Notes: generated from the letters alone by a model not told the origin. Positions 2,212 through 10,986 are shown, counted from the stretch's first letter. The stretch: 24,000 nucleotides of DNA from Dehalococcoidia bacterium (GCA_965220375.1 OZ244824.1:1178968-1202967), one strand, 5' to 3'. Numbers and translations are program-made.

Positions 2212-5200
2212 CTACTCGTACCGAAGGGCTTCGGCGGGGGTGACCCGGGAAGCCTGCCTGGCGGGGAAGAAGGTGGTGAGCATAGCGAAGATGTAGGTTG
2301 CGATGATTATTCCCACGATCTGCAGCCAGGGCACAGAGAATTTTATGCCCTCCAGCTGGTCCTCGAACCCGACCACAAGGTTGTTGGACAGGACGAATCC
2401 AAGGCTCACGCCGATAGCAATCCCCAGCAGGGTTACAAAGGAGGATTCCAACAGGAAGCTCAGCTGCACCATCTGCTGGCGGTAGCCCAATGCCCGCAGC
2501 ACGCCTATCTGCTGGCGCCGCTCCACCACAGCCCTCATGGACACCACGCCCAGGGCGGCGATGCCTACGATTAGCCCCAAGCCCATGTAGCCGATCAACA
2601 GGTTGTAGAAGGACCTGAAGAAGGAGACCAGGTCGGCGACTTGGTCCTCCAGCACGACGGTTTCCATGCCGTTGGCCAGGAAGGCGACCTCCAGGTCTTT
2701 CGACGCTTCCCGAACGTCAACCCCTTCGGCCACCTTGAACCTGTAGGTCGTTATCGGTATCTCCCCTGCAACGGGTACATTGATGCCGTTCCTGGACGCT
2801 ATGATACCCGCCAAATCCGCCGTCGGGTCGAGTATGGCGATGATCTTATATTCCCGCTCCCAGCCGCTGAGGGGCTCCGAAACCTCCACGGTTATGGGGG
2901 CTGCCAGGTCCTCGGTGAAGGAGACTCCTTCCAGGGTGAAGCTGCCTGCATCGTTAAAGTCCTGCTCGGCCTGCTCAAGGGCACCCGAATCTATCACCAC
3001 CAGGCTTGGGTCCCGAAGGAGGGCTTCCCACACAGCGTCGTCATCGCCCCTGTACTCGGGTATCGCAGAATGGATGCCGTACCCCGTCTGGTCCAGGTAC
3101 TCATCATCCGAAGCCTGCAGCGCGTAGCTCTCCCATGCCTGGCTTTCGGCCCCTACCTGCCTGACCGCAATGGGAGCTGTGGTGAATCCGCCGATGGCCT
3201 CGAAGTTAGCTATGGACAGGGAAGGGTTGTCTGCGATGGATGCCCGGATGTCGTCGATGGGACTGGCAAAGCTGACCCCGCCTTGGATATCCCAACCCCC
3301 GGCTATGCGCTCCGTATCGCGGAAGGTGTTGGCAAAAGATTCATTGAGCAGGGACATCACCACCATGGTGAAGATCACCAGGGAGAACATGGCTAGTGTG
3401 AGGCCTGTACGGAACTTGGCGCTCATAGGGTAGGCGACGGCGGTAACCACAACGGGCCGCAGCCTCCCCACCCGAGAGGTCAGGATCGTAAGGCCCCGCA
3501 GCAGGAGGTCGGCGTTGTACATAACCGTCCACACCGCGGCGCCCACCATGCATATCCCGGAGATGAAGAACATCTCGATGTCACCCTCCAGGTCCCCGGC
3601 CAGCACATCCCCCAGGTCCGCCGGGAGCAGCCAGAAGGCCAGCACCAAGACCCCTATCAGGGTGAAGGCGTGGCGATCGATGGTCTGGGGCCTTCGGGGA
3701 ACCTGGCCGCTGAGCAAGGGTAGGACCATGGAGGCCCCGGCAATCAGCAGCAGGGCCCCTATCGTGATGGTTACCGCCTGCCCGTTCAGAATGGCGTAGG
3801 GAAGCAGCAGCACTCCCGAAAGGGCCAAGAGGAAGCCGAACACCTCGGTGAACTGGGGCTGTGCCGTCACCAATAGGCGCAGCATAAGCCCAAAGCCGAG
3901 GACCATCAGGGTCATGCCCAGGGTGAAGGCCGCCTCAGAACTCCACGCCTGGATGCCTTGATAGTACAGGAACGCCCCAATCAGGAAGATGAGCCAGCCC
4001 CTGCGCAGATAGGGCAGAGAGAAACGCACGATGGCAATGAATAAGTCGGTTATCCAGATGGGGAACACGATCACCCAGAGGACGCTGCTCAGGGAGCGGA
4101 GGGTACCCCGCAGGAACCTGCCGCGGGCTATGGAGGAGATGCCCTGCCACAGGAAGACTATGGGCCGCCCCAGGGACAGGGGGAGCAGCTTCGCCCGTTC
4201 CATGAAGGAAGGCTCGCCACCCAGGACGATGTTTTCCGGCACCCCACGCACCGCCTCGGCGATGTTCATTCGGCTGACGCGGGTTGCCGAAACTACGGCG
4301 GTGACAAAGACGATGATCATCCCCATGCAGAAGGCGGCGATAATGCTCCTGGCCTCCACATGGTAGGTGAACGAGAAGTCCAAATCGATCCGACCAATAA
4401 TGTAATTGAGCAGGGCGATGATGCCATAGCTGATCACCAAGCCCAGCAGGGTCCCCACGGCTGCGGCGATCAGGTCGTAGGTGGTGCCCTCGAAGACGAA
4501 CATCTGCACCAGGTGGCTTCGCTTCGCCCCCACGGCCCGGGCCATGCCCATCTCAGTGCGCCGGGCGGCAGCCAGCATCACGAAGATCAGGAATATCAGA
4601 AGGATGCCCACCATGATGGAGAACAGGCCGAACATGACAAACAGGGATGTGATCCCGCTTCCGGCCTGGTCGGCGATGTCCAGGAGGAAGCGCTTGAGCT
4701 CGAACACGCTCAGGGACGCCAGGTCCTGGAAGAGGTTGTACGCTTCATCAAGGACCTCCCGACGCTGGTCATCGGGCAGTCCCGCGCCTTCTATGGCTGA
4801 TAGCACATCATCCTGCACCGACGGGTCCGAGAGGGTCTGCACAAGCTCATCGGAAATCCTCGGCTCTTGCAGCTCCCGGTGGAGGATGTCGAGCTGCTCC
4901 TTGGCCCGACCCAGGGCGGAGCTTCTCTGATCATCTATGGCTGACAGCACGTCGGGCTGGCTGAGCAGGACCTTCAGCTCGGCTGCCACACCTTCGTCGG
5001 CCAGCAGCCCCCGCAGATGGGTCGTAACGTCCCGGCTAAGGTCGGCTCCATCCTGGGACCCTCCCAGGTTTGATACGGAGATGGTGTTGATCTGTCCCTG
5101 GCGCCCGAAGAGCTCCTGTCCCTGCTCCAGGGAAAGGAGGGCCGTGGGGCTGGTGCTCTGTCCTGCCATGCCTCCCGACCGGACGATTTCGGCCACATCG

Positions 5201-5853
5201 AAGGCTTTCGTGTCCCCGCCGACTTGCAGGGCGATTCGGTGGCCCGCTTGCGCCTCCAGCTCCTCGGCCGCCGCGTCGTTTAGGTAAAGGCTTCCGCCGG
5301 GGAGCTGCTGAACGGACACAACCTCGCCGGAAAGGGTGGTGAGGGGCCTAAACCCGTCCAGGTGCGCCGGGTCAAATGCAGTTACCCGCATGCGGCCCTC
5401 GCTGAGGGATGTGGTATCGCTGAAAGCCGGGACCGTCTCAGCCATGTGGGGAATGATGCCGTCGATCTGGTTGAAGCCCTGCAGGGCCTCCTGCAGCCGG
5501 CGGAATTCATCCTCGGAGAAATAAGGCGGGCCGGGCTGTCCGAAACCCTCCGGGTCCTCGGAGGAGGTCAAGACCTCGTCGATGTTTCCCAGCTCCACTA
5601 TAGCGTCGCTGCGAATGGAGCTGCTGATGGTGTCGCCGGTGGCAAAGGCTGCTGTGATGATCACAGCGCTCAGCATGGAACCGACCACGATGAGCACGGA
5701 CTGGGACTTGCGGCGGGGGATGTTGCGCAGACCCAGGCGCAGCATCACCCGGTTCCTCCACGCCAGGATGCCCACGACGAGCATGATCGCCAGGAAGACG
5801 ATCAGCATGGTCGCCGATATGTAGGTCATTGAAAGGCCGAACAGCTCATCCAT
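2212..5853 (-). CDS. ABC transporter permease, MacB/FtsX-type with two FtsX modules (1213 aa)
   Basis: N-terminal TM helix, then a long soluble segment and a first FtsX-like bundle (around RRTEMGMARAVGAKRSHLVQMF). A central block of extra hydrophobic helices and a second soluble segment follow. A second FtsX-like bundle sits at the C-terminus (RRQQIGVLRALGYRQQMVQLSF). ATG at 5853 lies 14 nt after the ATPase stop with an AGGTGAG RBS. Confidence 0.85.
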   Translation of the reverse strand: MDELFGLSMTYISATMLIVFLAIMLVVGILAWRNRVMLRLGLRNIPRRKSQSVLIVVGSMLSAVIITAAFATGDTISSSIRSDAIVELGNIDEVLTSSEDPEGFGQPGPPYFSEDEFRRLQEALQGFNQIDGIIPHMAETVPAFSDTTSLSEGRMRVTAFDPAHLDGFRPLTTLSGEVVSVQQLPGGSLYLNDAAAEELEAQAGHRIALQVGGDTKAFDVAEIVRSGGMAGQSTSPTALLSLEQGQELFGRQGQINTISVSNLGGSQDGADLSRDVTTHLRGLLADEGVAAELKVLLSQPDVLSAIDDQRSSALGRAKEQLDILHRELQEPRISDELVQTLSDPSVQDDVLSAIEGAGLPDDQRREVLDEAYNLFQDLASLSVFELKRFLLDIADQAGSGITSLFVMFGLFSIMVGILLIFLIFVMLAAARRTEMGMARAVGAKRSHLVQMFVFEGTTYDLIAAAVGTLLGLVISYGIIALLNYIIGRIDLDFSFTYHVEARSIIAAFCMGMIIVFVTAVVSATRVSRMNIAEAVRGVPENIVLGGEPSFMERAKLLPLSLGRPIVFLWQGISSIARGRFLRGTLRSLSSVLWVIVFPIWITDLFIAIVRFSLPYLRRGWLIFLIGAFLYYQGIQAWSSEAAFTLGMTLMVLGFGLMLRLLVTAQPQFTEVFGFLLALSGVLLLPYAILNGQAVTITIGALLLIAGASMVLPLLSGQVPRRPQTIDRHAFTLIGVLVLAFWLLPADLGDVLAGDLEGDIEMFFISGICMVGAAVWTVMYNADLLLRGLTILTSRVGRLRPVVVTAVAYPMSAKFRTGLTLAMFSLVIFTMVVMSLLNESFANTFRDTERIAGGWDIQGGVSFASPIDDIRASIADNPSLSIANFEAIGGFTTAPIAVRQVGAESQAWESYALQASDDEYLDQTGYGIHSAIPEYRGDDDAVWEALLRDPSLVVIDSGALEQAEQDFNDAGSFTLEGVSFTEDLAAPITVEVSEPLSGWEREYKIIAILDPTADLAGIIASRNGINVPVAGEIPITTYRFKVAEGVDVREASKDLEVAFLANGMETVVLEDQVADLVSFFRSFYNLLIGYMGLGLIVGIAALGVVSMRAVVERRQQIGVLRALGYRQQMVQLSFLLESSFVTLLGIAIGVSLGFVLSNNLVVGFEDQLEGIKFSVPWLQIVGIIIATYIFAMLTTFFPARQASRVTPAEALRYE

Positions 5854-5867
5854 TGCTCACCTGCGGG

Positions 5868-6593
5868 TTACCTGTTGGACCCTGCGCGGCCTCTAGCTTG
5901 AGAAGCAGACATGCCGTCATCCACAACTATGCCGTCCCGCATGCGGACGATGCGGTGGGCGCGGTCGCCTACATCCTGTCCATGGGTCACCATGACGAAG
6001 GTCTGACGATTCTCCTGGTTCAGGCGGCACATCAGCTCCATGATGTCGTTGGTCGTTTCGCTGTCCAGGTCGCCGGTCGGTTCGTCGGCCCAGACTATTG
6101 CAGGTTCGTTTATCAGCGCCCTGGCTATGGTCACCCTCTGGCGCTGGCCCCCGGAAAGCTCGCCGGGCAGGTGGTGGGCCCTCTCTGAAAGCCCTACGAT
6201 ATCTAGCTGCTCCATGGACTTGCGTCGGGCCTCCCTGGGATTTACACCCGCAACCAGAAGGGGCATCTCCACATTCTCCACAGAGGTGAGGACGGGGATC
6301 AGGTTGTATAGCTGGAACACGAATCCCATCCGGCGGGCGCGGTAGTCGCTGCGTTCATCGTCGGGAAGCTCGTGCAGTTTCTTGTTCTCGATGAGTATCT
6401 CCCCCTGGTCCACCGTGTCCAGTCCCGACATGCAGTTGAGAAGGGTGGTCTTCCCGCAGCCGCTGGGACCCATGATGGCGAGCATCTCGCCCCGCTCGAC
6501 GGTCAGGTCCACTCCCTTCAGCGCTTCCACCTTTATCGTTCCTGTGTCGTAGGTCTTGAATACATCCCGCACTACTACGGACGGAACCTCCAC
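5868..6593 (-). CDS. ABC transporter ATP-binding protein (MacB/LolD-like)
   Basis: Walker [10 protein letters not shown], signature LSGGQRQRV and Walker [16 protein letters not shown] start at 6593 has AGGAGGG 5 nt upstream. Confidence 0.9.
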
Positions 6594-6654
6594 TGGACCC
6601 TCCTAACCTTGACATTGACATATCGGGCGGCTTAGCCTCTCTCCAAGCAAACGC

Positions 6655-6669
6655 CCTATATCATATAGG
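6655..6669 (+). promoter_or_regulatory. 15-bp perfect palindrome CCTATAT-C-ATATAGG overlapping the Shine-Dalgarno of the cupin gene
   Basis: Read directly: 7-bp arms around a central C. The right arm runs into AGGAGGG (6667-6673), which precedes the GTG start at 6676. Confidence 0.3.
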
Positions 6670-6675
6670 AGGGAA

Positions 6676-6987
6676 GTGGCTGTGGCTAGGGGGGATGCAC
6701 CCTTGGGAGAAGTGGCAACCAGGGTGCTGTTTGAGAATGAAAAAGTGAAGATATGGAGCTTGGAGGTAGCCCCCGGCGATGCCAGCGACTGGCATCTCCA
6801 CAAGTGGGACTACGTCACCGTGTCTGTGGAGGGGGAGCGCCTTGTGCGGGAGCTGGAAGATGGGACCACAGAGCTGGTGGCCTTCGAGCCTGGGCGATGG
6901 ACGTATCATGCGGGACCTGAGGTACACCGGGTGATCAACGACAGCCAGGTCCCGTGGCAGAACCTGCTGATCGAGATCAAGGACTAG
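6676..6987 (+). CDS. Small cupin-domain protein
   Basis: 103-aa ORF with GTG start after AGGAGGG. It has an HLH (HxH) motif followed by a VSVEG strand and a later H (EVHRVIN), the cupin metal-site pattern. The beta-rich sequence is typical of a single cupin barrel. Confidence 0.6.
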   Translation: MAVARGDAPLGEVATRVLFENEKVKIWSLEVAPGDASDWHLHKWDYVTVSVEGERLVRELEDGTTELVAFEPGRWTYHAGPEVHRVINDSQVPWQNLLIEIKD

Positions 6988-7026
6988 GCGCCCGCCCAAG
7001 TTTATCCGAACGGACCTTGGCCCCTA

Positions 7027-7059
7027 TCTCCTTACCAGCGTATCCTCTTCGTAAGGAGA
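7027..7059 (+). promoter_or_regulatory. 9-bp perfect inverted repeat TCTCCTTAC-N15-GTAAGGAGA covering the vapB RBS
   Basis: Read directly. The right arm contains the AAGGAGA Shine-Dalgarno 7 nt before the vapB ATG (7066). It could be an autoregulatory operator or an RBS-sequestering hairpin. Confidence 0.35.
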
Positions 7060-7065
7060 CGCGCG

Positions 7066-7311
7066 ATGTTAGTCAAGGTCACTTCTAAGAGGCAGGTAAC
7101 CTTTCCAGCCCGGGTGCTGGAGGCACTGGGAGTTGAGCCGGGGGACCAGATTGAGCTGCTCGAAGGCCCGGATGGCTTCTTACTGCGCCCGCGCCGGATA
7201 GACTATTCCAAGCTGGGCACCCTCCGGGACAAGATACCACCCGGGACCCCGCCCTTTGACATCCGCAAATTCAGAGACGAGGGATATGATCCGTACAAGT
7301 ATCGGGATTGA
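7066..7311 (+). CDS. vapB: AbrB/MazE/SpoVT-family antitoxin (VapB-like)
   Basis: N-terminal swapped-hairpin signature: VKVTSKRQVTFPARVLEALGVEPGDQIELL. Its 3' end overlaps the start of a PIN-domain reading frame, which is the classic TA arrangement. Confidence 0.8.
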   Translation: MLVKVTSKRQVTFPARVLEALGVEPGDQIELLEGPDGFLLRPRRIDYSKLGTLRDKIPPGTPPFDIRKFRDEGYDPYKYRD

Positions 7312-7689
7312 CGCCTCCGTACTTGTGCGGCTCGCCTTGGTCAGCTACAAGACCTATTCGCCCGATGTGTCGCACGGTTAAGGGACCTCTCGTCAGGTGG
7401 AGTTGAGGTTCTTGCCTCCAACCAGGTGATCGGGGAGGCATACGTTGCCCTTCAGCGCCACTATGTCATTTCGTGGGAGGACTCCAGAGCCGCGCTTCAT
7501 GCCACCCTCACCAGCGGCCTGGCAGCCCCCCTCAACGGAGGTCCTGTACTGGATGCCCTCTCTGCCTCCGGCGGCCCCGGCCTCTTTGCCCGGCTGATAG
7601 CCAACGACTACTCCCACGCCGGTTTGGAAACTCTGACCCTGGACCGGCAGATGGCCTCGCTGCCTGCAGCGCGGCTCCTCGAAGGGTAG
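7286..7689 (+). pseudogene. vapC: PIN-domain toxin (VapC-like), disrupted by a frameshift
   Basis: ATG at 7286 (GAGGGA RBS, overlapping the vapB 3' end) opens MIRTSIGIDASVLVRLA, the first PIN acidic motif, and stops at 7379-7381. The rest of the PIN domain continues in another frame, open from 7312 to 7689: VEVLASNQVIGEAYVALQRHY ... LIANDY ... TLTLDR. The frame switch must lie around 7330-7345. Confidence 0.65.
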
Positions 7690-7726
7690 TACGGATGTTG
7701 TTCTTCTATTGAGGCGGTGGGCACTG

Positions 7727-7948
7727 ATGACTTACCACGTTTACGAGAACTGGACGATTAACAAGGCAATTGTCCACGAGGGTAGATGCCCTTATTGTAA
7801 GCATGGCCGGGGCATCCACAGGACGGATCGCGGGAGGAACGGTCAATGGCATGGGCCATACGAAACGAGAGATGAGGCGCTTCAACACGCCAGAGCTACG
7901 GAAAGGCGTGATGTGAGGGCATGCAAGTTCTGCTTGGGCGGTCAATAG
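7727..7948 (+). CDS. Small Cys4 zinc-ribbon-like protein, function unknown (island gene 1)
   Basis: 73 aa from the ATG at 7727; the track start at 7709 is TTG. It has two CxxC pairs (CPYC and CKFC) about 45 residues apart. It is the first gene of the AT-richer island. Confidence 0.55.
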   Translation: MTYHVYENWTINKAIVHEGRCPYCKHGRGIHRTDRGRNGQWHGPYETRDEALQHARATERRDVRACKFCLGGQ

Positions 7949-7972
7949 AACCCCAGCGATGAAGGGACCGGA

Positions 7973-8275
7973 ATGAATGACCAGCAGTTGGACCGAAACT
8001 TAAGATCCATAGGGAAAGAATGCTTTGTTACGTTCTTCGGAGAGCTTTGCGACCTAGAACTAACTAACGAGGCCGTTGCCAGATACATTGCGCAAGATTG
8101 GGGTTGCGATGAAGGCGCTGCCCTAACTTGGCGCGTGAATCCCGCCCGAAAGATCGTCCAAGCAGGGCGCGCGGCGGACGCGTTGGATATTTGCGCAAGA
8201 AGCCGTTTGCCAGCCCATACTAGGGATAGAGCCGCTGAATTAGCTGCCCATTTGAGGAAGTCAAGCCTGCCATGA
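7973..8275 (+). CDS. Hypothetical 100-aa protein, predicted helical (island gene 2)
   Basis: ATG preceded by GAAGGGA. Its stop overlaps the next gene start as ATGA (8272-8275), implying translational coupling. I recognise no family. Confidence 0.5.
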   Translation: MNDQQLDRNLRSIGKECFVTFFGELCDLELTNEAVARYIAQDWGCDEGAALTWRVNPARKIVQAGRAADALDICARSRLPAHTRDRAAELAAHLRKSSLP

Positions 8276-8784
8276 ACAGTGCTGAGACATTCAAGAGTTC
8301 ATTGCGATGGCTGGAACACAGCTACACAGACTACACGTTCTACACGGAGCGGGATGTCGTTTGGACAGTACAGAAGCATATCTCAGAAGAGATTGGCAAA
8401 GCAGGTCTGCGATGCCGGGTTTTCAACGACCACACTATCTTTAAGGGAACCAGGGCCGATCTGGTGATCCTTGGTGAGGGGGATTTCGTAGAGATAGCCG
8501 TTGAGTTCAAGTACGAGCCATCCCACGCTCGCAGGGCGGACCGTGGTGGAGACATCTGGCCATCAAAACTTGACCCTTCGGTAGTATTTTGGACCGGAGA
8601 GGGAAGCGTCCAAAAAGATGTAGACCGTGTGCAAGAATATGTCAAAAGGCTGTTGGCTAAGGAAGCCTTCTCCATCTTCATAGATGAGGGCGGCCGCTTC
8701 CGGTCCCGCAGCCCCCATAAGGGGAGCGAGTGGATAGACTGGGGCCGGGGTGTAAGTGTACTCTGGTCTCACGTGGTTCAGTAG
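8272..8784 (+). CDS. Hypothetical protein with PD-(D/E)xK nuclease-like motif (island gene 3)
   Basis: 170 aa. The spacing E26 ... D63 (RADLVIL) ... E78-F-K80 (IAVEFKYE) matches the restriction-endonuclease-fold core: beta-strand D, then hydrophobic strand ExK. The call rests on the motif only. Confidence 0.5.
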   Translation: MNSAETFKSSLRWLEHSYTDYTFYTERDVVWTVQKHISEEIGKAGLRCRVFNDHTIFKGTRADLVILGEGDFVEIAVEFKYEPSHARRADRGGDIWPSKLDPSVVFWTGEGSVQKDVDRVQEYVKRLLAKEAFSIFIDEGGRFRSRSPHKGSEWIDWGRGVSVLWSHVVQ

Positions 8785-8841
8785 CCGCCAATTGTGCTCA
8801 ACGTATAATAGTGAACCAATAATTTCCTCGGAGAGAGTTAA

Positions 8842-9342
8842 ATGCAGGCTTGGGTGGTCCGCGCAGGAGGGAAGGATCCTGAGGGAGGAAAGGATCAACC
8901 CTCCGTTGCGAAAGACTTTTGGAAGGCTTCGGTTGCCGCCATCGGTTGGGGGATCGGCGATTTGTCTCAAGCCAGCAATAGGGAAGAAATAGAGGCCAAA
9001 CTTCAATTCAAGAATTCGGGCTGGAGCAATTCCAAAATGGGGAACATAACTGGAAGTATCCACCGCTTTGTCCTTGAAATCAGCGTAGGGGACCTGATAG
9101 TCACGCCGGAGCCATTCGGCGGAAGTGATGTTTTGATCGGATATTGTGCAGGCCCTTATGAATACCAACCAGGGTTGATAAAGGACTGTGATGATGCGAG
9201 AAAAGTGAATTGGCAAAAAAAGATTACTAGGGGCAGCCTCTCGGGGCCGCTACGTAGGTCGCTGGTTCCAGGATTGACAGTTTACAACATAAGCAAGCAC
9301 ATCGAAGAGATACAGAACCTGCTGATTAAGACCAAAGACTAG
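8842..9342 (+). CDS. Hypothetical beta-rich protein resembling the N-terminal sensor/reader module of some Mrr-type restriction enzymes (island gene 4)
   Basis: 166 aa; ATG preceded by GGAGAGAG. The pattern is MQAWVVRAGG ... AAIGWGIGDLS ... ISVGDLIV ... LIGYCAGPYEYQP ... RKVNW ... LTVYNIS. From memory, this matches the N-terminal module fused to Mrr-cat nuclease domains in many bacterial 'restriction endonuclease' proteins. An EVE/PUA-like fold is only an inference. Confidence 0.5.
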   Translation: MQAWVVRAGGKDPEGGKDQPSVAKDFWKASVAAIGWGIGDLSQASNREEIEAKLQFKNSGWSNSKMGNITGSIHRFVLEISVGDLIVTPEPFGGSDVLIGYCAGPYEYQPGLIKDCDDARKVNWQKKITRGSLSGPLRRSLVPGLTVYNISKHIEEIQNLLIKTKD

Positions 9343-9383
9343 GACCATCCCGCCGGTGGGAACCGCCAAATACAGGAGGAGAT

Positions 9384-10845: not shown

Positions 10846-10986
10846 CTAGGCTTTGCCGATTCGATAGACCTTGGTACCGCAGGTTGAGCAGGTGCCCTGG
10901 GTTGCCGGTCGGCCGTTCTTCAGGGTTACCGGATGGGCATCCTTAATTTCTTTCTTACCACGGCACTTGAAGCAATAAGCATCCAT
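10846..10986 (-). CDS. DUF5679-type small zinc-ribbon protein (46 aa), not in the supplied ORF track
   Basis: Hand translation gives MDAYCFKCRGKKEIKDAHPVTLKNGRPATQGTCSTCGTKVYRIGKA. It has two CxxC pairs, GGGAGGG 7 nt upstream of the ATG, and its own terminator. The sequence pattern matches the DUF5679 family as I remember it. Confidence 0.8.
   Translation of the reverse strand: MDAYCFKCRGKKEIKDAHPVTLKNGRPATQGTCSTCGTKVYRIGKA

Follow-up and report, generated by a model that had tools for sequence, protein, structure and literature searches.

The chromosome of an uncultured Dehalococcoidia bacterium carries a compact block of four short genes, which we call g1 to g4, in the interval that separates a cupin gene from a Rieske oxygenase gene. 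The block was studied within a stretch of 24,000 nt (GCA_965220375.1, OZ244824.1:1178968-1202967), referred to below as the window, and positions in the window are counted from its first letter. We found that the site is bounded by direct repeats and exists in five strain variants, and that the four genes are conserved as a block in two alleles; these are the strongest new facts of this study. We tentatively propose, at a little less than an even chance, that the block is a split, modification-dependent (type IV-like) restriction-like cassette, which was acquired horizontally and lies in a hotspot of defence and toxin-antitoxin (TA) genes.

The four genes lie at a repeat-bounded, strain-variable site

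The four genes fall in the low-G+C part of the window (7713-9342). The G+C content of this part is 52.2%, the lowest of all 1630-bp stretches in the window, whereas non-overlapping 1630-bp stretches elsewhere in the window have a mean of 61.6% with a standard deviation of 1.3% and a minimum of 58.8%, which places 7713-9342 about 7 standard deviations lower. The G+C fraction at third codon positions is 0.52-0.61 in g1-g4 compared with 0.68-0.83 in the other tabulated genes of the window, except for a 46-aa open reading frame (ORF) and one doubtful ORF. A preliminary description of the window had reported a sharp drop in base composition from sampled 60-nt lines; the G+C counts that it gave (25, 29 and 33 inside the segment, 42 and 40 in the flanks) are all exact, and the sliding comparison confirms the deviation. 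It had also described four short co-directional genes, each with its own Shine-Dalgarno sequence, and the layout was borne out. The ORFs g1 (7727-7948), g2 (7973-8275), g3 (8272-8784) and g4 (8842-9342) are all on the + strand, a purine-rich stretch was found 5' of each of the four starts, and the stop of g2 overlaps the start of g3 as ATGA at 8272-8275, as had been stated. The Rieske oxygenase gene starts 41 nt 3' of g4.

Two 31-nt direct repeats bracket these genes. The left repeat, DR1 (6958-6988, + strand), consists of the last 9 codons and the stop of the cupin gene at 6676-6987 (...QNLLIEIKD), and the right repeat, DR2 (9313-9343, + strand), consists of the last 9 codons and the stop of g4 (...QNLLIKTKD). 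DR1 and DR2 are identical at 27 of 31 positions, compared with 23 of 31 for the best direct match among 300 shuffles, and together they represent a duplicated cupin 3' end that brackets a vapBC-type TA locus and g1-g4. The structurally defined island between the direct repeats (6989-9343) takes in vapBC. In appearance the duplication resembles that of an attachment site, and no integrase is present there. DR1 and DR2 were also considered as hairpin-forming sites and were set aside as such, as no structure was found.

Five versions of the locus were retrieved by means of the identical adjoining ABC ATPase. Their flanks are 97-99.9% identical, and four of the five cargo versions come from one sample (ERZ25067264). 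Between the cupin gene and the Rieske oxygenase gene, these near-identical strains carry five different cargos, with DR1 found in every version. In the window and in L081, DR1 is followed by vapB, a frameshifted vapC and g1-g2-g3-g4, the last of which ends in DR2. L078 is arranged like the window, but its g2 is mosaic, and its g3 (167 aa) and g4 (160 aa) are of a second allele. In L079, a 2.64-Mb chromosome, vapBC is absent and g1-g2-g3-g4 exactly occupy the space between DR1 and the right repeat. In L080, vapB and an intact vapC are followed by PIN/PrlF on the opposite strand and by a 3' remnant of g4, and in L082 (the same as L066), vapBC is followed by PIN/PrlF, a 135-aa protein and a g4 that ends in DR2. 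The right repeat of L078, L079 and L080 is a separate cupin-3'-like remnant located 3' of g4, or of the g4 remnant in L080, and in the window lineage g4 has become joined to the right repeat. The near-identical flank stops at window position 6995 in L079 and restarts at 9318-9319 in L078, L079 and L080, which are the positions of the repeats. Relative to the sister strain L066/L082, the stretch 7713-8913 (1201 bp), which spans g1-g3 and reaches to codon 24 of g4, is non-homologous and is swapped for 2347 bp with PIN, PrlF and the 135-aa protein, while the flanks of the swapped stretch are 98.3% and 99.3% identical. The earlier view of a segment of foreign composition beside TA genes thus holds, in that the G+C dip coincides with a strain-variable cargo spot shared with TA modules.

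The block is conserved in two diverged alleles

L079 carries a divergent allele of the block. Between the window and L079, the amino acid identity is 68% for g1, 55% for g2, 76% for g3 and 37% for g4; the ratio of nonsynonymous to synonymous substitution rates (dN/dS) is 0.16 for g1, 0.43 for g2 and 0.21 for g3, and synonymous sites are saturated for g4. Synonymous divergence (dS) is 0.6-1.3 in the cassette, in contrast to 0.14-0.30 in the flanking genes (0.14 for the Rieske oxygenase gene, which is 97% identical, and 0.30 for the cupin gene). All eight ORFs are intact over both alleles, and their spacing is kept (24 nt, -4 nt at the ATGA overlap, and 57-59 nt). From the intact and equally spaced ORFs in two diverged alleles, we conclude that inheritance and exchange involve the block as a whole, in which g4, the gene of the predicted reader, evolves fastest. 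That the four-gene block recurs elsewhere was therefore confirmed by the L079 allele, which has the same order and spacing, and the contrary possibility, that the four genes never co-occur, was overturned by the strain versions of the locus.

These data bear on the main alternative, to which we give a lower but still considerable probability, namely that the genes accreted without a joint function in a cargo hotspot. In that case g4 would be an orphaned McrBC/Mrr reader, g3 an independent solo gene, and g1 and g2 unrelated, and the persistence of the block in two alleles would be due only to the transfer of 1.6 kb of closely packed DNA as one piece. Accretion accounts for L080, which retains only the 3' remnant of g4, and for alleles that are mosaic by recombination, such as those of L078. 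It is harder to reconcile with four ORFs that stay intact in both alleles despite a dS of 0.6-1.3, with dN/dS values of 0.16-0.43, and with the unchanged spacing and ATGA overlap. In addition, g1-g3 never occur without g4 at this locus in the three carriers (window/L081, L078 and L079).

g3 is predicted to represent a new family of the PD-(D/E)xK nuclease fold

g3 encodes a 170-aa protein of an unnamed family with a predicted PD-(D/E)xK fold. We found 308 homologues at E <= 1e-3, nearly all of them 165-180 aa long, and a Pfam domain in none of the 308. The preliminary description had pointed to E26, D63 and E78-x-K80 as a spacing typical of PD-(D/E)xK nucleases; all four residues are invariant in 41 family members, and the modelled fold agrees. 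Further invariant residues in the 41 sequences are R27, D28, W31, Q34, Y81-E82-P83, R87, K99, D116, D138-E139-G140 and W154. The AlphaFold 2 model of g3 has a predicted local distance difference test score (pLDDT) of 95 and an order of helix-helix-three strands-helix-three strands (helices at 3-20 and 26-44, strands at 49-57, 60-67 and 73-82, a helix at 113-125, a strand at 131-139, then two more strands), in which the second helix bears E26, and consecutive strands bear D63 and E78/K80. In a Foldseek search against the PDB, the top match was the restriction-endonuclease-like 3ijm (probability 1.0, E 4e-3, template modelling (TM) score 0.40-0.50), followed within the top six by the uncharacterised 3dnx and then by the nuclease modules of BsaXI and DrdV, none of them at E 1e-3. 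Sequence and profile searches of the PDB with g1-g4 and with the family profiles of g2, g3 and g4 yielded nothing usable, and a BFVD fold search with g3 yielded weak PD-(D/E)xK-type matches only. Taken together, the invariant E/D/E/K residues, the confident model and the fold matches argue that g3 represents, as modelled, a PD-(D/E)xK-fold family that is new at the sequence level and whose catalytic set is intact, and the protein would be expected to cut DNA.

A genome scan located g3 homologues in 59 other species genomes, mostly Dehalococcoidia; the other hosts are Ktedonobacterales, Bacillaceae, Planctomycetes, Actinomycetota, Omnitrophota and one Halobacteriota archaeon (47% identity). Such a family, which is patchy, crosses phyla and domains and has its members always in different neighbourhoods, would fit an explanation in which g3, possibly together with g1 and g2, is not a defence gene but a selfish or element-maintenance nuclease of the homing or recombination type that spreads its own gene, and this would also explain a repeat-bounded cassette without an integrase. 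We regard this as improbable. Among the scanned loci, only one solo g3 gene, that of L054, has direct repeats around it; no match to g2 or g3 was obtained by tblastn in phage and plasmid collections, scans of viral contigs for g2, g3 and g4 found none, and features of introns, inteins or transposons were likewise absent. Moreover, the strong purifying selection on g3 over deep divergence (dN/dS 0.13-0.15 in one set of comparisons and 0.13-0.25 over all) fits a cellular function at least as well. The repeat in L054 is a perfect 24-nt direct repeat (~5996-6020 and 7010-7035) around a g3 homologue with an unusually long ORF call (6001-6933), and it may represent a partial duplication.

g4 consists of a lone DUF8426 domain homologous to modules of restriction enzymes

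g4 encodes a 166-aa free-standing DUF8426 domain and is predicted to be a PUA-like (YTH/EVE-like) reader of modified bases. g4 is annotated with PF28530 (DUF8426), and so are all but one (P0139) of the 19 relatives returned. A search with g1-g4 in a Pfam release that lacks the DUF8426 model gave no match at E <= 1, and a literature search found no paper mentioning DUF8426. The AlphaFold 2 model of g4 has a pLDDT of 88, and its best PDB matches are YTH domains and the nuclear magnetic resonance structure 2gbs (Rpa0253), the top ones with probabilities of 0.97-1.0 and TM scores of 0.35-0.5; the 50 best fold matches in the PDB have probabilities of 0.91-1.0, with modest query-normalised TM scores of 0.32-0.47 and E about 1e-3. 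The conserved aromatic residues are W4, W36, F76, Y106 and W124.

The likeness of g4 to the N-terminal module fused to Mrr-cat nucleases, which had been noted before, proved to be a matter of homology, since g4 is homologous to residues 1-165 of Mrr_cat enzymes and to the N-terminus of PDC-S02. The PADLOC profiles of PDC-S02 match g4 with an E-value of 4e-22, with residues 19-163 of the protein on positions 13-158 of the 334-position profile, and they match the 160-aa g4 of the L079 allele with an E-value of 9e-29, also in the N-terminal half. Plasmid relatives annotated as 'restriction endonuclease' have DUF8426 at 1-165 and Mrr_cat at 193-306, and these enzymes adjoin type I restriction-modification genes or a methyltransferase/helicase/GIY-YIG cluster. 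W4, R7, G9, F76, D84, G100, Y106, R120 and W124 are common to the free-standing and the Mrr_cat-fused forms. The dN/dS of g4 (0.19-0.27) indicates purifying selection. From its relatives and modelled fold, g4 would be expected to bind a modified base.

Standalone homologues of g4 are few (19 clusters), and their surroundings vary. In L071 (6001-10250), a standalone DUF8426 gene, the product of which shares 53% identity with g4, precedes the genes for McrB (726 aa, with AAA_5 and McrB_lid) and McrC (called in two pieces) by 340 nt, and the reader is thus encoded apart from McrB. A fragment of McrB lies 3' of g4 in L062, two g4 relatives have McrB-N-terminal-like extensions, and Mrr-like extensions were also found. 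In L072-L074 (5113-6459), a gene of the Uma2 family, which is of the PD-(D/E)xK type, is divergent from a standalone g4 homologue at a distance of 148 nt, though this may merely reflect an abundance of Uma2 genes in these genomes. The variety of these settings, in which g4 relatives occur with McrBC, with a McrB fragment, fused to McrB- or Mrr-like sequence, or alone, is accounted for if g4 is an orphaned reader in an accreted cargo, whereas the repeated pairing of g4-type readers with nucleases (Mrr_cat, McrBC, g3 and the Uma2 gene) speaks against accretion.

Relative to the L066 allele, g4 contains an 18-nt insertion at ~8865-8882 (codons ~9-14; GKDPEG-GKDQP) that looks like a tandem duplication and lies in a low-confidence loop of the model (pLDDT 57, residues 11-20). 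As a separate observation, a gene for a D12-class (Dam-like) N6-adenine DNA methyltransferase lies ~6-7 kb from the island in L078-L081, beyond the left end of the window. It is called with 322 aa in L078 (13712-14680), 271 aa in L079 (13863-14678), 305 aa in L080 (13764-14681) and 287 aa in L081 (8970-9833), and it may be relevant to a YTH-like reader.

g1 and g2 encode small proteins without a named family

g1 encodes a 73-aa Cys4 protein (C21/C24 and C65/C68). Its start was assigned to the ATG at 7727 and not to the TTG at 7709 because the L079 homologue begins with MTYYVYENW at the equivalent ATG. Of the Cys4 zinc ribbon that had been proposed for this gene, the CPYC and CKFC motifs are indeed present, while family matches stayed below threshold.

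The product of g2 is 100 aa long and belongs to an unnamed but widespread family, whose members measure ~95 aa and of which 144 cluster representatives were found at E <= 1e-3. Among the relatives, fusions to an HNH nuclease or to HigB-like/HI1420-antidote-like TA pieces occur, and in P0200 (293 aa) an N-terminal g2-like domain is fused to an HNH endonuclease domain (162-208). A narrow metagenome scan for g2 found four loci, in which g2 was alone or the contigs were too short to judge. The C-terminal half of g2 (...TRVSxARxIIxAG...AL) is presumably similar to a helix-turn-helix of the sigma-70 region 4 type, a likeness that no tool backed.

The close arrangement of g2 and g3 raises the question of whether they form a TA-like pair, in which a small antitoxin gene overlaps a downstream gene for a nuclease toxin and g1 and g4 are incidental. 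The ATGA overlap of g2 and g3 is found in both alleles, the site also holds vapBC and PIN/PrlF modules, and g2-like sequences are joined to HigB-like and HI1420-antidote-like pieces, all of which would agree with such a pair. However, the g3 family is present in 59 genomes without a g2-like gene, so g3 has no need of g2, and genes of the g2 family occur solo as well. We consider a TA-like pair very unlikely.

The partners rarely accompany each other in other genomes

A number of observations weigh against the proposal that the four genes form a split restriction-like cassette. Its weakest point is the presumed joint action of the four proteins. By hidden Markov model search, g2 was found beside g3 homologues in 0 of the 59 other genomes, and these genomes contain one g1-like gene (L010) and one disrupted gene of the DUF8426/Mrr type (L047). 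In L010 (5598-6507), the g1-like gene (38% identity, with part of the Cys4 motif missing) is divergent from the g3 homologue at a distance of ~190 nt, and this is the only pairing of g1 and g3 found outside this lineage. In L047 (Virgibacillus litoralis, 3703-6534), an 89-aa DUF8426 fragment and a 173-aa Mrr_cat ORF are located 1.5 kb upstream of the g3 homologue, and L047 is alone among the other g3 loci in having a g4-type domain close by. No neighbour is common to more than 7 g3 loci, and the 108 immediate neighbours are mainly metabolic enzymes, with the exceptions of three PIN_3 proteins and an apparently single DNA methyltransferase. The view of the four-gene combination as a general module is not sustained by these genomes, in which the partners are nearly absent around g3.

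Similarly, g4 occurs without g1-g3 in the sister strain L066/L082, and it is solo among housekeeping genes in other Dehalococcoidia. An intact g4 is preceded in L062 by a g1 pseudogene (80.7% nucleotide identity to 7727-7999) and a g2 that is cut at codon ~36, and in L064 by a frameshifted g2. Both the solo g3 genes in 59 genomes and the decay of g1 and g2 beside an intact g4 are accounted for by accretion. The structural matches are modest (TM score 0.35-0.5, E about 1e-3), and the idea that g3 is the split-off Mrr_cat half of a PDC-S02-like enzyme was ruled out by an hhalign probability of 0.5% against the Mrr_cat halves of g4-bearing enzymes. Finally, PDC-S02 is a candidate system that is itself unvalidated, and in the one test found, a representative of it was not among the four candidates that protected against T4, T5 and T7 (bioRxiv 10.1101/2024.09.26.614923).

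The g1 homologue of L062 (7633-7854) deserves a separate remark. It has an in-frame TGA at codon 20 and otherwise a dN/dS of 0.25 relative to the window, which suggests recent inactivation, a sequencing error or recoding.

A tentative model for the cassette

In the restriction-like cassette that we propose, g4 would recognise a modified base in incoming nucleic acid and g3 would supply the cleavage, while two small subunits, the zinc-ribbon protein g1 and g2, the translation of which is coupled to that of g3, would serve in regulation or as adaptors. Acting together, g4 and g3 would do the job of single-chain Mrr-like enzymes or of reader-bearing McrBC. That g3 and g4 act jointly, what g1 and g2 do, and that the result is defence are all matters of inference. 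The defence module put forward in the preliminary description is in part retained by this proposal, in view of the foreign segment, the fold of g3, the homology of g4 and the recurrence of the block; the combination is not a general one, and nothing specific was found in support of abortive infection. We find it rather doubtful that the block amounts to a self-contained, undescribed modification-sensing defence system. In such a system the DUF8426 reader would act in trans with a nuclease of the new PD-(D/E)xK family, with a zinc-ribbon protein and a small, putatively helical protein as adaptor or regulator, and the whole unit, without an integrase and flanked by a duplicated gene end, would move as a cassette.

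If the proposal is true, type IV reader modules can act as separate small proteins with interchangeable nuclease partners, and a widespread nuclease-fold family, which counts more than 300 clustered members from bacteria and archaea and lacks a Pfam model, would receive its first function. If the genes are only co-transferred remnants, the locus is an ordinary small accessory island. Regardless of function, the site constitutes a compact natural experiment, in which near-identical strains from the same samples carry five cargos at one repeat-bounded position, including two alleles of the cassette with a reader that has diverged to 37% identity.

Neighbouring genes and other features of the window

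The TA locus of the island lies upstream of g1. A vapB-type antitoxin gene (7066-7311, + strand; 81 aa) encodes a protein of the MazE/AbrB fold, which matches PF04014 (E 5e-10) and TIGR01439. It is followed by a frameshifted toxin gene, 'vapC' (7286-7689, + strand), the reading frame of which overlaps vapB. A 1-nt deletion near 7337 was placed by alignment to the intact 134-aa gene of L066, which is also intact in L080 and L082, and the open fragments end at 7381 and span 7426-7689. Neither the frameshifted nor the intact 134-aa version of 'vapC' has a Pfam PIN match at E <= 0.05; we therefore treat 'vapC' as an inferred name, one that rests on its position and on an N-terminal IGIDTSVLV motif. 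The vapB and frameshifted vapC pair that had been described directly upstream of the four genes is thus sound as regards the MazE/AbrB antitoxin and the 1-nt deletion, and the membership of 'vapC' in the PIN family lacks a Pfam match.

A TATAAT hexamer had been noted ahead of gene 4, and it is present at 8804-8809 on the + strand, in the spacer between g3 and g4, as a candidate promoter element. A scan for promoters and terminators found nothing above the chance level of shuffled sequences, the TATAAT being without a usable -35 element. A 217-aa antisense ORF at 8563-9216 was taken for a shadow ORF, since homologues of the + strand genes evolve under purifying selection. Scans of the window for Rfam families and tRNAs found nothing. 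A 46-aa Cys-rich ORF (10846-10986, - strand) matches DUF5679 with an E-value of 2.7e-16 and is kept in all sister strains; the interval in which it sits, from the Rieske oxygenase gene to truB, shows another small dip in G+C (0.50-0.55).

Comparison with known systems

The preliminary description had not recognised the four-gene combination as any named defence system, and we came to the same result, as PADLOC models match g4 alone and only in their N-terminal half. The cassette falls outside PDC-S02, Mrr and McrBC, and it shares parts with each of them. With respect to the single-chain Mrr-like enzymes of the PDC-S02/COG4127 type, g4 of both alleles covers approximately positions 1-158 of models with 300-346 residues. 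Unlike these enzymes, g4 ends after the reader domain, and the matches stop near profile position 160. The island also differs from Mrr-type enzymes in that it has no Mrr_cat (PF04471), and g3 is located upstream and not downstream of the reader and belongs to a different PD-(D/E)xK family. COG4127, the Joint Genome Institute name for two g4 relatives, is listed among the domains fused to McrB (PMC11090510).

McrBC systems with N-terminal readers (ADAM/DUF3578, EVE or YTH-like) can be compared through L071, in which the g4 homologue is directly upstream of McrB-McrC. In contrast, neither the McrB AAA+ GTPase nor McrC (DUF2357 plus nuclease) is found between 6989 and 9384 of the window, and the candidate effector g3 is a stand-alone 170-aa nuclease-fold protein with no NTPase.

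Standalone readers of the EVE type have been described beside restriction and TA genes, and EVE domains in a defence context are fast-evolving (Bell, Wolf & Koonin 2020, PMC7641849). In common with standalone EVE/ASCH/YTH-like readers, g4 is free-standing, lies in a defence/TA neighbourhood and evolves faster than its neighbours (37% identity vs 55-76%). It differs from standalone EVE readers in being DUF8426 and not Pfam EVE, the likeness being structural and modest, and g1-g3 are not described partners of EVE. For g3, the nearest comparison is with small PD-(D/E)xK proteins (3ijm and 3dnx), which it resembles in size, in the core of helix and then three strands, and in the placement of E...D...ExK. 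Unlike them, g3 has no sequence or profile relation to any PDB chain or Pfam family, and it has extra invariant residues.

As a whole, the site differs from defence islands and hotspots in that it has no integrase or transposase, its repeat is only 31 nt long and imperfect, and the island measures 1.8-3.5 kb. It resembles them in being a low-G+C insert between core genes, in offering one position to alternative cargos, in combining TA with restriction-like genes, and in direct repeats that arose from a copied 3' end of the target gene.

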